Positions 3,273 to 53,190 of a stretch of DNA of 64,000 bases are shown here, piece after piece. The stretch is taken from assembly GCA_951406725.2 (NCBI GenBank), contig OX597815.1, positions 68,882,001-68,946,000 on the forward strand. The letters run 5' to 3'. The notes beneath the pieces are model-generated. The model made no database searches, was not told where the DNA came from, and saw only the letters and a list, made by a program, of their open reading frames with translations. Position 1 is the stretch's first letter. Every line of letters starts with the position of its first letter. This DNA is from Octopus vulgaris. Lineage: Eukaryota. A program made the translations under genes and the position numbers.

Positions 3273-4368
3273 GTAAGTAAGAATGTGCAGCTCTCTCTTG
3301 ACTTTTATTGTTCATCTCTGATTTCTTCTTGCTTCTTCTTCATCAATTTTTACCTTTCATTTTTCTGAAATATATGAAAAATTACCAATCTGAGGGTGGT
3401 ACATTGACAGAACTGCAGAACATCAGTCTGGCAGATACCTTGTGATATTTATTCCAGTTCTTTACATTCTTATATTTAAATTCCACCATGACCTGCTTGT
3501 TGATAGACTTATTCCATCACCCAGTTTAATGCCATTACGTGGTGCCTCTGGTGTCTTCAGTGGAGGCTTCTCTTTTGCAATCATTCATGCCAAATCTCTG
3601 GTTTGATGATACCTTTCTCTCTCCCTCCCATCAGTCTCAGAGGCATTGTAGATGGCCATGAGCTCTATCCTTCCTCCTCACTAAAGAAGAAATAAAAATT
3701 CATCCGGTTATTGTCATTAATGTTATTTTTTGACTTATATCCCTAGGGTTGTGAGCTGACAGAATTGTTAAGATGTTGGTAAAAAAATGCTTTTACATTC
3801 TGACTTCTAATCTTGCTAAGTTGAGCCTTGTCTTTCATACCTCTGGGGTTGATAAAACAAACTACCATGTACTGGAGCTAATGGTATTGATTAACCCCTC
3901 TGCTCAAAATTGCTATCATGTATCTGGATTAAAAATGATTACTGTTAAATAGCCCTTGTTAGCTGTGTGGAAGTAACACTAAAGTACATTTAATTATATA
4001 ATTTGTTTGTATTCTGGAAGCCCAATGCCAATCTGCATATGTTGTAGTTGTATATGCAGAACTCTTAGTGATCCCAGTGCATTGTTGTACCCAGGGGTCC
4101 AGAATTCTGTAAAGACAACCCTGTTGATAGCTTTAGTTTCATAGAATAAGCTTTCTGACAGTGTCAATAGTTGTCTGGTTCAGTAGAATACCAAACATTA
4201 ACTAAAGAACTCAGCACTTTGTATGCTGTTGTCAGCACTGTGGTGTTTCATGGCCAAGATATTTAACTGTCTAGTAGTCATCACACCTGTGGCAGCACTG
4301 TAAAATTGACTTGTGCTTCATTAGTTTGCAGTGCTGATTCCTACTCCTCATTTATGTATATAGCTTAA

Positions 4369-4579
4369 CTCTTTAACATTCAGATTATTCTGTCAAATGT
4401 AATACTTATTCATAAAAGTTGAGTTAATCATGTATTATCTTGTAGCTTTTAGATTTTGATGAACTGAATGTTTATTTTTAGAATGATTTTGTAAGGTAGG
4501 TGGGAGAGGCCAGATCCAGCCACTTTGATCATAAAACAGAATATTTCAGTCTGATATGGCTGGTTTAAATGCTAAAGAG
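4369..4579 (+). mobile_element. piggyBac-like MITE (family P2)
   Basis: TTAA|ctctttaacatt ... aatgctaaagag|TTAA terminal inverted repeats; homologues at 13139/15657, 39561 and 62519. Confidence 0.75.
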
Positions 4580-5667
4580 TTAAACAAGGGTCCACTCTAC
4601 CAAGCTGATTTCCCCCATTGTACTTACTATACACAAATGGGGTTACTATGAATTTAGGAATTACCAAAATAATCATTCTACTATATTTTTTAAATTTTTA
4701 CTAACTGTTTTTTTTTTTGGTGGTGGTGATGAGGGATTGGAGGTTTTGAGATGCGGGATACTTGTTTTATCAAGTATTTTCTTAAAAAGTCAGCTACTTT
4801 TTTTTACAGAGAAAGGATTGTAGATCACATTTTAAATTATAACAATTAAATAGAAAGAAACAAACAAAAAAGGAAGATAAAAATGAAAAGAAAGAAAAAA
4901 GGGGCAATAAGGCCCCTTTATTGGTGGAGGTGGAAGGAGTGATGTGCTATACACTCTGGAACAAATAGTATACTCAGTTGCATGCCACAGTTATGACTGT
5001 GGTGGTGTTGCTGCAGAGAATGGCCAGTGATACTCATTGCAGCAACCACTCCACCTCATAGGACTCATTTCTTAGATGGGCCACTGTTATCCTGATTTTG
5101 TGGAGGAAATTGGTAGTGTAAGGTCTGAAAATACCTGACGTCTTGATAGCGACTGGCACAAACTGATATCAGCCGGTCAGCCCTTGTATGTATTAATTTT
5201 TCTCTCTTCCACATTATGGGCTGTGACACCTAGGTGAAGAGAGTCAACACATTAGAGGACTTGATTGGTTGTATTAGTTTATCCCATCCACACTGTCATT
5301 TATGACTTTTTCTTCACTTACTTACCTCAAACCTACACACTGGTTTTCCTACCTCCATCCCCCTATTTATTTATCTCCCTATTTGACCGGTTGATTCATT
5401 GTGTCTCTGCCTATGCATCTAACTGGGTGTTGCTCTTGTGTGTCTATATTCTAATTTTGTATTTACTTTTCATCACTCTCCTTTGATGAAATAATACCAG
5501 TAGTATATTGAAGTGAGCCAATAATCAAATTCTCAACGTTTTTTTTTTCTTTCTTTCTCCCTATTTTCCTCTTTTTTCTTTATTTTTGTCTTTCTTCACT
5601 CATGTTTGTGTTTTCTTTGGTTTTAGATTGGTATTCAAATGTAGTTTTTTTTATTATATATGTATCA

Positions 5668-6058
5668 TGTGGTAAGTAGCTTGCTAACCAACCACATGGT
5701 TCCGGGTTCAGTCCCACTGCGTGGCACCTTGGGCAAGTGTCTTCTACTATAGCCTCGGGCCGACCAAAGCCTTGTGAGTGGATTTGGTAGACGGAAACTG
5801 AAAGAAGCCTGTCGTATATATGTATATATATATGTATTATGTGTGTATGTGTTTGTGAGTCTGTGTTTGTCTCCCTAGCATTGCTTGACAACCGATGCTG
5901 GTGTGTCTACGTCCCCGTCACTTAGCGGTTCGGCAAAAGAGAGACCGATAGAATAAGTGCTAGGCTTACAAAGAATAAGTCCTGGGGTCGATTTGCCCGA
6001 CTAAAGGCGGTGCTCCAGCATGACCGCAGTCAAATGACTGAAACAAGTAAAAGAGAGT
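5668..6058 (+). mobile_element. tRNA-derived CORE-type SINE (family 1)
   Basis: B-box GGGTTCAGTCCC, CORE-like ggcaccttgggcaagtgtctt, tail gactgaaacaagtaaaagag; near-identical to the 11813 copy. Confidence 0.85.
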
Positions 6059-6087
6059 ATATACATGCATACATACATATATATGTA

Positions 6088-6131
<44 letters not shown>

Positions 6132-6141
6132 TAATAAGTGT

Positions 6142-6540
6142 GGGCATTGCTGTGTGGTAAGAAGCTTGCTTCCTGACCATATGGTTTTGCGTTCAGTCCT
6201 ACTGTGTGGCACCTTGGGCAAGTGTTTTCTACTATACCCTCTGGCTGACCAAAGCCTTGTGAGTGGATTTGTTTGTTGGAAACTGAAAGAAAGAAGCCTG
6301 CCATATATATAAATTTATATGTGTGTGTGAGTCTTTGTCTTTGTCTCCCCACCACTGCTTGACAACTGCTGTTTACACACCTGTAACTTAGCTGTTCAGT
6401 AAAAAAAAAATGCCAATTGAAATGCTAAGCTTAAAAAAAAAGTCTTGGGGTTGAATTGTTTGACTAAAACCCTTGAAGGTGGTGCCCCAGTATGGCCATA
6501 GTTAAATGACTGAAACAAGTAAAAGATCAAAGATAAAAGA
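6142..6540 (+). mobile_element. SINE family 1, diverged
   Basis: Colinear similarity to 5668-6058. Confidence 0.8.
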
Positions 6541-47990: not shown

Positions 47991-50438
47991 TCTGCTCTTG
48001 CTAACTGTAGTAGTAGTAGTAGTAGTAATGTCCCTGATGCAGTACCAAGCACTGGCTCTCATAACTTCTGATCTTAACTGATTGGAAGTGTTATCATAAA
48101 AGTTGGCCTACAGAAAATATTCTGCTCAATACCACAGATTTGCTTATCAGTTGTTTGACCGTAACCAGTTGAGCATGTCCCTTGGTGGTTGACAATATGT
48201 GCTTGTCTGATCACGAGCAGAAGTAGTGGGGGAGCATCATAGCCATGTGTTGAGAGGAATTCTTTGGAGTTTGAGTAATTCACCTCTGGAAACATGTGTG
48301 TTTCATTCAACATCCTTAAACAAGGACCTTTTGAGTGGGGTAGGCTACTCAACCTGAAGAAAGTTCTAACTGGGCTCCACTTGCAAGGTCATGTGCTTTT
48401 TATATCATGATATAAAATCACCATGCCATGCACATATGGTTGTGAGGCATGTGCCTGGTGTACCCTTGCCAGACGGGTAATCATGATGATATACTGGGCT
48501 TGGTATATTTTATCCCAGTGTCACTTTGATGGCATGTGCATGATGATGATGATGATGATGATACTGCTGCTGCTGCTGCTGCTGCTAATAATAATAATAA
48601 TAATTTCTTTTGCTCTGGCTCAAAGTCAGTTTCTGTATGGTATGAGTATAACCTATTGTACCGATTTCAGAACAGAAGAATACTAAATATTTCTTTAATC
48701 AATTCCAGAGATGTGAAAGACAAAGTTCAACTTCAGTAAGAATCAGAATGTGAATTTAGAACCTTTAGTATAGGGGTCTAAATTGATTTCGATCACAAAT
48801 ACAAGGTCAGAAATTTGGATGTGGGGACACAGTCTGTTGCATTGGCCCAAGTGCTTGATTAGTATTTATTTTAATGATCACCCATCCCCCCATAGGAAGA
48901 ATGAAAAGTGAAGTTGACATCAGTGGTATTTGAATTGGGGATGAGGTGAACTCTTTTGATTCCAATGTGTCTGAGACTACTCCTCATTCTATGATGCAAA
49001 CCTGCTGTTTCAAAGTGATCTGAATTATTACGTTCTATCAAAATTTTATGTTAATTTATATTTCAAACACCATCTCAATAAAGATAAAGGTATTTTACTG
49101 AATTCTTAATAATCAAAATTAACTGAAACAAAGACAGTGTTTGTCTTTGCCTTTCACCATTTGATAACTAGTGTTGGTTGGCTTACATCCCTGTAACTTA
49201 GTGGTTCAGTAAAAAGAGAATGGACTGTTGACTGATTCTTTCAAGGCAGTGCTCCAGCATGACTGTAATCCAATGATTGAAACAAATAAAAAAATAAAAG
49301 CATGTCACTCTCAACTTTGTTTGTTGAATGTTTTTAAGACATCATTAACAAGGTTTAGTAGAGATCAGCTGATTATATTGAAGATTTTCAAGAATTAATC
49401 TTTGTAGTTAGCAAGGTTACAGACTGACCTCTCTTGAACTTTTCAAAGAAGTGTCAAGTATGTTAACATTGTTGCAATGGAAGTATTGTTCCTGGCATTA
49501 TTTTATTTTAAAGTGGCAAACTGGCAGAATTGTTACCACACTGGACTCCAAAATGCTTAACTGCAATTTGTTCCAGCCCCATATGTTCTGAGTTCAAATA
49601 CTGCTGAGGTCACTTTGTCTTTCATCCTTTTAGGGTTGATGAAATAAATAACAGTTAAGCACTGGGGTTGGTGTAATTGACTTACTCCTAAAATTGCTGG
49701 GTCTGTACTAAAATCAGAAACAATTATCTTAAGATGGAACCACTGCCATCTCCACGAAGCATATAGGCATTTCTGTTGTTGTGAGTCTTGTTATATAACC
49801 TTGATAAATACTTTTTTGTGGGTTGTTTCTCATGTGTCAAGGCCAGAAGAAATGTAAACGCACACATTGCTATGGAGATCAAACTCCATAGCAACCATAT
49901 AACAATAATTGTAATTAGGCCAAAGAATGAGGGTTATAAACAGTGGAACAATTAACAGTTTTTGTTATACTTCTGCAGACGTGAATAGTTGATATCAGTT
50001 GTCCTTGAAATTCTTTCACTGCATTCCTTTTCTCATTGAGCAGCAAGCATACCTTCTTTCAGCTGCAACTTCTTCAGGCTTTCTTCTATTCTTCTGACTT
50101 TTGCTCTTGAGATATTCTTTGTTCATTGTTGGCCAACCCAGATTCGGAAAACTTCATTAATGGATGCTATCTTAGCTAAAGTGATTTATTTGATGACAGC
50201 AATAAATTTTGCATTGAGGTCCCCATTATATTGTCTTCAGTGGAGCGACCACTATTGTTCATTCTTCCTGAAAGAAGATGAATTGTCAAGTGTAAAACCT
50301 AGTATTTAGGATATTTCAGGAATTATGGGATATATACATATACACATAACATATGCACATATATATCATCATCTTTTAAACTCCATGTTCCAAGCTGTCA
50401 TCAGTTTTTCACCCCATATACCTATATATATATATACA

Positions 50439-50532: not shown

Positions 50533-50651
50533 AATTTATATAAATAAGGATAAGATCGTTAATTTAAATTAAATAATGATCTTATCAAGTGGCCAGCATG
50601 GAAATAAAAACCTTCAAAGGTAATAATTATTATTATTATTTTATATATATA

Positions 50652-51035
50652 CTAGCAGTATCACCCAGCGTTGCTCGGGTTTGTAAGGGAAATAACTATA
50701 AAGCATTTTTAGAGAGTTATAGCAAAAAAATGCATTAAAAATGGAAAGAAAATGATGGTAAATTTTTTTTAAAATCGTTGACTCATCGTAGACATTTTTA
50801 GAGAGTTACTTCCCTTATATAATAGCGAAAAAATGCATTAAAATGGAAAAAATGATGGTAAATTATTTTTAAAATCATAGACTCATCGTAGATGCGCGCT
50901 AATACCCAGAAGGGCTCGATATGAATCACGACTATAAGATACCCGGTTTTGGTTAAACTGCACCGCAAAATGTGGGAGTAGTTAGGAATCTAAATCATAG
51001 GAGACAGACACACAACCTTACTTTTATATATAAAG

Positions 51036-51036
<1 letters not shown>
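50652..51036 (-). mobile_element. non-autonomous Helitron H1
   Basis: TC...CTAG termini and 3' hairpin; inserted in (TA)n. Confidence 0.88.
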
Positions 51037-51063
<27 letters not shown>

Positions 51064-51066
<3 letters not shown>

Positions 51067-51257
51067 ATTTTATAGAAGGAGCTTCTACAGGACTAGAACT
51101 GTTTCATTCAAAAGAAATCATCAGGGCTTCCTGATGATTTCTTTTGAATGAAACAGTTCTAGTCCTGTAGAAGCTCCTTCTATAAAATAAATTAATTTAC
51201 TCTGCTATGTATTGAGTACCTTATTTACTGTGGTTAACCCCGACTCAACCCGGGACC

Positions 51258-51260
<3 letters not shown>
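51064..51260 (+). mobile_element. young Penelope-like terminal repeat with perfect 62 bp fold-back, inserted in (TA)n
   Basis: 51064-51125 is the exact reverse complement of 51130-51191; 4 nt loop; tail continues to 51260. Confidence 0.85.
51124..51176 (+). ncRNA. type I hammerhead ribozyme
   Basis: Stem I GGGCUUC/GAAGCUC; CUGAUGA 51131-51137; stem II U-UUC-UUUU-GAA-U; GAAA; stem III ACAG-uucuaguc-CUGU; GUA with predicted cut after 51169. Confidence 0.8.
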
Positions 51261-51304
<44 letters not shown>

Positions 51305-52971: not shown

Positions 52972-53190
52972 AGGCAGTGAGTTGGCAGAATCGTTAGCAT
53001 GTCTGATGAAATGCTTAGTGGTGTTTCGCCGGTCCTTATGTTCTGAGTTCAAATTCTGCCAAGGTCAGCTTTGCCTATCATCCTTTGTGGGTTGATAGAT
53101 TAAGTACCAGTCAAGTTCAGGGGTTGATGTAATCGACTATCCCCCTCCCCCAAATTTCAGGCCTTGATCCTATAGTAGAAAGGGTTATTA
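52972..53190 (+). mobile_element. SINE family 4
   Basis: Homologous to the reverse complement of 19418-19652. Confidence 0.8.

Follow-up and report, generated by a model that had tools for sequence, protein, structure and literature searches.

A hammerhead-bearing hairpin in Octopus vulgaris is one of about 2,000 head-to-head stumps of a probable Hydra-type Penelope-like element

The window analysed here is a 64,000-nucleotide stretch of Octopus vulgaris DNA (assembly GCA_951406725.2, contig OX597815.1, positions 68,882,001 to 68,946,000 of the forward strand), and all coordinates refer to it except those with a plus sign, which are counted from the first base of hammerhead stem I (+1, window position 51125). 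Enclosed by (AT)n on both sides, the window sequence contains two perfectly complementary arms, 51064-51125 and 51130-51191, that form 62 bp around a 4-nt loop; a repeat comparison within the window extends the match between the arms to 65 nt at 98%. The hairpin folds at a predicted -133.5 kcal/mol (z -23), and 0 of 200 shuffles did as well, which confirms that the perfect hairpin described from the letters alone in an earlier note is far beyond chance. The features of the locus are as follows.

51036..51063, no strand: left (AT)n target flank
51064..51125, minus strand: short arm, inverted element +6 to about +67, the 62-bp perfect complement of 51130-51191
51124..51130, no strand: head-to-head junction at the inferred transcript start (+1 = 51125), placed from junction lists, the parental TATA box 29 nt upstream and an extra G
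51125..51175, plus strand: type I hammerhead pattern, predicted cut 51169/51170
51126..51264, plus strand: long arm, element +2 to about +140, carrying the hammerhead and a one-sided tail, placed by identity to copies L065 and L066
51192..51260, plus strand: tail of about 70 nt, on one arm only, whose parental position lies between the pLTR end and the ORF (copy comparison)
51261..51303, no strand: right (AT)n target flank

The last four bases of the long arm (51126..51264) are common to the (AT)n flank. As the earlier note had stated, the 5' strand of stem I is missing on the minus strand; the inverted copy starts near the core, not exactly at it as had been read, but one base 5', and so includes the last base of stem I. 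Directly to the left, 50650-51036 is occupied by another short element, present in very many copies and internally duplicated over about 100 bp, which ends right at the (AT)n run holding the hairpin and is very deep in all runs compared; its ends resemble those of Helentron-associated short elements. Two diverged copies (79-88%) of another dispersed repeat lie at 49579-49682 and 53034-53138.

On the plus strand, the 5' strand of stem I (51125-51130) leads into the core CUGAUGA at 51131, followed by a stem II of 3 bp over a U-U mismatch, GAAA, stem III and GUA, with cleavage predicted between 51169 and 51170. All the elements of a type I hammerhead (core CUGANGA, GAAA, NUH triplet and three helices) are present. 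The G10.1-C11.1 pair at the base of helix II, which passages of PMC4209133 describe as highly conserved in hammerheads, is absent, and U-U takes its place in all of the 241 arms. No Rfam hammerhead family matched at gathering score, nor among the 48 matches at E up to 10, and the Rfam search of the hairpin gave miRNA-type hairpin scores only. In isolation the hammerhead fold is predicted at -7.4 kcal/mol, against -7.7 kcal/mol for the lowest-energy fold, and makes up about 5% of the predicted ensemble. The complete plus-strand hammerhead claimed in the earlier note is upheld as a type I pattern, albeit an atypical one in its U-U mismatch, its lack of an Rfam match and its small share of the ensemble. 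Frequent variants in the 241 arms, a set whose anchor pattern favours conserved arms, are confined to N7, loop II and loop III, as expected if the hammerhead fold is maintained.

A genome search with 51124-51260 scored 40 copies, out of 156 candidates, at 99-100% identity, most of them with an inverted arm of their own, and extending the copies downstream led to long copies that run on into an ORF. The long arm in the window is 100% identical over 138 nt to the ORF-bearing copies L065 and L066, and copy L068 consists of a pLTR, an unbroken 713-aa ORF, a second pLTR and a tail. Direct pLTRs in a partial-tandem layout with a tail are seen in L068, L062, L067 and others. The ORF carries YRDD and YIG motifs together with the Hydra-type motifs DKT (116), RWR (38), CxCx5C (567), CxxC (667) and CxH (695), and the insertion target of the family is (TA)n. 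The account of the Hydra clade in Craig et al. 2021 (PMC8557442), in the parts consulted, lists a C-terminal nuclease region, DKT, an RW motif (RWK), a CxCx5C linker, CxxC, CxH, a hammerhead and (TA)n targeting. The family departs from that account in having RWR for RWK and a unit, measured between long copies, of 4.8 to 5.6 kb through a microsatellite-rich 3' part; in the parent L068 this part (3950-6150) consists of some 2 kb of mixed microsatellite. Searches with the ORF gave no RT or GIY-YIG match in Pfam and no match in the PDB, and among its protein-atlas look-alikes (0.96-0.99) part of the members carry HTH_animal, GIY-YIG or RVT_1. Judged by protein motifs against the published description, the parent appears to be a young Hydra-type Penelope-like element (PLE), and the near-identical copies and ORF-bearing parent bear out the proposal of the earlier note that a Penelope-like element inserted here recently, with a truncated copy of its terminal repeat in inverted orientation.

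Other classes of element were considered for the locus and rejected. A 246-nt retrozyme monomer, delimited from copy L017, is incompatible with the other copies, which continue into the ORF; a non-LTR retrozyme would consist of tandem units each with a hammerhead, and the locus is a single head-to-head pair; and for a fold-back DNA transposon or MITE, the junction varies between copies and the arms are unequal. A retrozyme-like arrangement of the same family does occur elsewhere (L053-L060, G000:C5 near 37.48 Mb), where a TATA box, hammerhead, tail and ORF start form a 333-bp tandem array of at least 15 units among those listed.

Head-to-head junctions near +1 gave 2098 matches per strand, a few loci being counted twice, compared to 5 for the reversed pattern used as a control. 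The locus is thus one of about 2,000 near-identical stumps of about 200 bases, the smallest insertion product of the element. We aligned the arms of 98 distinct pairs drawn from the first 52 loci listed for the junction pattern, from 36 of the +2 to +30 loci in which no TATA box was matched and from 29 of the 30 initial-search loci, excluding loci without a detectable close pair (4, 9 and 6 in the three samples). All 98 have an inverted 5'-truncated copy with a one-sided tail, and each combines an arm that reaches no further than +72 with one that extends to at least +105. The short arms end between +66 and +72 in 95 of the 98 hairpins and the long arms at +140/141 in 96. The arms are identical over +12 to +57 in 65 pairs and differ in the other 33, so that the perfect hairpin in the window is typical, and the special locus implied by the earlier note becomes one hairpin among some 2,000. 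At subfamily sites the two arms agree (loop II 91/93, loop III 96/97), which suggests one RNA or one source locus, while subfamily bursts at different times or later conversion could also produce such agreement. Many TATA-bearing copies (among the matches listed, G000:C1) are themselves head-to-head pairs 0.3-10 kb apart, and three such pairs (L146, L152 and L161) likewise have one short and one long end.

No contig of the public runs compared bridges the hairpin in the window, as might be expected of an assembly or library fold-back artefact. We consider this explanation extremely improbable given that the arms end at element-specific sites and are unequal in length, that loose ends before +1 occur in the independent short-read runs X1 and X17, that the palindromic junction is present in the independent runs X15, X17 and X5, and that the arms differ within a third of the pairs (33/98).

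These counts also bear on the function suggested for the hairpin, a switch in which the duplex silences the ribozyme and A-to-I editing frees it. Long perfect duplexes are ADAR substrates, and the first half of the proposal fits the folding predictions, in which the duplex out-competes the ribozyme fold by 73 kcal/mol. The second half fails in the folding model: when none of the 22 adenosines in the antisense arm is allowed to pair and the ribozyme is left as it is, a best case that represents editing as a pairing ban in the computation and not as inosine chemistry, the hammerhead fold has a probability of 6e-13, and real editing would strike core adenosines too. The stump has no promoter, and as it lacks a TATA box any RNA from it requires read-through; we found no long host ORF in the 36-64 kb part of the window, where short exons may be present. 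With about 2,000 equivalent stumps and no sign of this one being kept, we find the switch scarcely credible. The cleavage control proposed with it, 51120-51200, keeps 5-6 nt of the antisense arm and has a predicted ribozyme fold of 1e-5, compared to 5e-2 for 51125-51176.

Where the two arms meet is informative about the RNA from which they were copied. Exact-pattern searches, which give lower bounds, counted 8041 arms for +31 to +56, 8145 for +12 to +38, 6181 for +2 to +30 and 2794 with an upstream TATA box. Most junction samples were chosen by near-junction patterns, and only the +2 to +30 sample is unbiased on the upstream side. Among the first 100 cores listed, 41 have a TATA match (matched by hand) and 59 do not; 50 of these 59 stop at +1/+2 (as scored by script, one of them probably extending 9 nt), 7 extend by 3-16 nt and 2 reach a variant TATA, among the matches listed. 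This leaves 49 or 50 stops at +1/+2 per 100 listed cores, whereas the adjoining 26 nt upstream hold about 5. All 100 TATA matches listed have the box 29 nt ahead of +1, with spacings of 16-30 permitted by the search and a spacer of variable sequence. In A/T-flanked single arms, a G precedes +1 in 50 of 93, with A, C and T together accounting for 43, and none of 104 native arms has a G at that position (a single variant makes up 83 of these arms, largely from overlapping loci of a tandem array); one public run likewise has a G between the short-arm end and +1. For LINE-1 and SVA, passages of PMC4859970 interpret an untemplated G as the trace of a cap that was copied. Because the junction falls at +1, the TATA spacing is fixed and the extra G is present, we infer from these copies a capped transcript starting at the first base of the ribozyme, although the extra G could instead be plain terminal addition at any template end. 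After an extra G, the A at +1 is replaced by T in 7 of 78 distinct loci (hand count), a change that miscopying of the base next to the cap might produce; 103 of the 104 native arms have A there.

The bases at +1/+2 are also AG following a pyrimidine-rich stretch, in all listed variants, and so resemble a splice acceptor, and passages of PMC4209133 map the end of an intron in D. virilis Penelope to the 5' end of helix I. It might accordingly be argued that the same element and two primers are at work but that +1 is a structural stall or a splice acceptor and not a transcript start. This appears very unlikely: the copies retain the AG that splicing would take out, no constant upstream exon was seen in the junction lists, an enzyme arriving at +1 is already past the whole ribozyme, and the TATA spacing is fixed.

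Taken as a whole, the hairpin is likely to be a 200-base Hydra-type Penelope-like insertion, one of some 2,000, for which both nicked (AT)n strands primed short cDNAs near the 5' end of the RNA that were then joined head to head. Transcription from the pLTR TATA box would yield a capped RNA that opens with the first base of hammerhead stem I. One target strand would prime reverse transcription inside this RNA at about +68, and the second strand would do so at about +140. Each cDNA would run off the cap, often copying it, and the two ends would anneal via the self-complementary AGCT (+1 to +4) or be sealed by end joining, with minor loss of sequence. The known long inverted insertions would arise if priming took place on the downstream pLTR of a read-through RNA. 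Locking of the ribozyme would be a by-product, because the antisense arm is transcribed first in any head-to-head stump.

Perfect junctions through the palindromic AGCT are the most frequent form (23/98), and junction loss is symmetric in the 75 pairs scored, with only the long arm complete in 24, only the short arm in 19, both in 31 and neither in 1. Since both arms reach +1/+2 in those 31, the one-sided ribozyme is incidental, and the symmetric clipping (24 versus 19) argues against simple fold-back of a long cDNA. Such a fold-back, the published idea that comes closest, underlies a self-priming explanation akin to that of Arkhipova et al. 2013, whereby a single cDNA that has reached +1 loops back onto its end and serves as its own template for the second arm. 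It would fit the agreement of the arms at subfamily sites, the two commonest junctions can be derived from a 2- or 3-nt fold-back loop, and palindromic junctions are interpreted in this manner in passages of PMC3846280. We nevertheless judge it rather unlikely. Only the long cDNA would carry the tail and the short arm should be the clipped one, yet the 19 cases above show the reverse, with a complete short arm and a clipped long one; each outer end lies at a fixed position of the element and abuts (AT)n; and the 2013 model calls for a template of antisense polarity, but the extra G indicates the 5' end of a sense RNA.

Some arms start where the ribozyme would cut. A genome pattern count found 107 arms with a base other than A before +46. 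The first 40 loci contain 44 of these arms, and 27 of the 44 start precisely at +46, the predicted cut. Ten of these were set aside as explainable by microhomology with the +1 end, leaving 17 unexplained by it, and at 3 loci both arms start there. Scaled up, the starts are estimated at 41-66 at +46, about 37 at +47 (5/30 of 224) and about 5 at +43 (4/30 of 41), and +43 is the sole control position, +47 being unsuitable as background with about as many starts as +46. The comparison suggests that the ribozyme may cut roughly 1% of parent RNA templates, an estimate resting on this one control position. Single-base deletions occur at +46 in 11 of 164 arms and at +49 in 14 of 164, versus 4 events over +12 to +44; these single-G deletion hot spots (window 51170 and 51173) are mostly found in one arm only and may be due to slippage or stalling.

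A more specific version of the two-primer mechanism, which we hold only tentatively, has the reverse transcriptase acting as a dimer on a single uncut, capped RNA. The dimer would prime both target strands from two fixed sites, make two copies of the 5' segment by strand displacement and link their ends, while in vivo the hammerhead would cleave a minority of the RNAs and so give rise to the second cluster of ends, and to the skipped bases, at its cut site. In keeping with two-primer joining in general, passages of PMC11167929 report that an anole PLE protein in vitro nicks and extends both strands with uncut RNA as the template, uses two internal start sites bounding the tail and is predicted to form a dimer. 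If the version with a dimer is true, the 2,000 stumps would be a genome-written record of the start site, the cap, both priming sites and ribozyme cutting, the last of these recorded for a hammerhead without the G10.1-C11.1 pair.

Several features of these stumps are already published, namely the inverted copy, the one-sided tail, the palindromic junction and opposite-strand hammerhead pairs. In the openly accessible papers that our search covered, mostly as main texts, we came across neither junctions tied to a capped start nor a strict pairing of short with long arms. Passages of PMC8557442 and PMC11167929 call the formation of PLE inverted repeats and one-sided tails, and the role of the hammerhead, open. 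Besides an intact protein and thousands of naturally formed products, the family supplies exact coordinates (start, two priming sites and cut site), and two-primer joining can therefore be tested against self-priming with a 140-nt RNA. If read through, about 2,000 near-perfect 60-bp hairpins would also be a sizeable potential pool of double-stranded RNA.

The closest published layout is that of EN+ PLE inverted-pLTR insertions, for which passages of PMC8557442 and PMC3846280 describe an adjacent inverted 5'-truncated copy, a tail at one end, a palindromic junction, a (TA)n target and a putative pLTR TATA box. All of these are common to both, whereas the insertions here total about 200 bp, occur about 2,000 times, have their junction confined to a single position, where an extra G is present, and carry a tail of about 70 nt instead of 30-40. 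Compared by eye, the element belongs to a different family from Hydra-1_Obim, with a different protein start and hammerhead. The PLE hammerheads and non-LTR retrozymes described in passages of PMC4209133, PMC7229834 and bioRxiv 2026.07.22.740005 are alike in having a type I hammerhead in the pLTR and a palindromic loop III, and the same sources describe opposite-strand hammerhead pairs 100-700 bp apart in Schistosoma. The present family differs from them in having U-U for G10.1-C11.1, and the locus is a head-to-head stump instead of a tandem array.

In LINE-1 twin priming, both target strands prime and an inversion with small breakpoint indels results, in which the inverted upstream part is non-overlapping; here +1 to +68 is copied twice. 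Poseidon PAc from Anolis, as studied in vitro (passages of PMC11167929), resembles the octopus family in two tail-bounding start sites, priming of both strands and uncut RNA as the principal template. For Poseidon PAc, those passages give no difference in start sites between strands and leave the joining unexplained, whereas in the octopus stumps the two sites are strictly paired, one per side.
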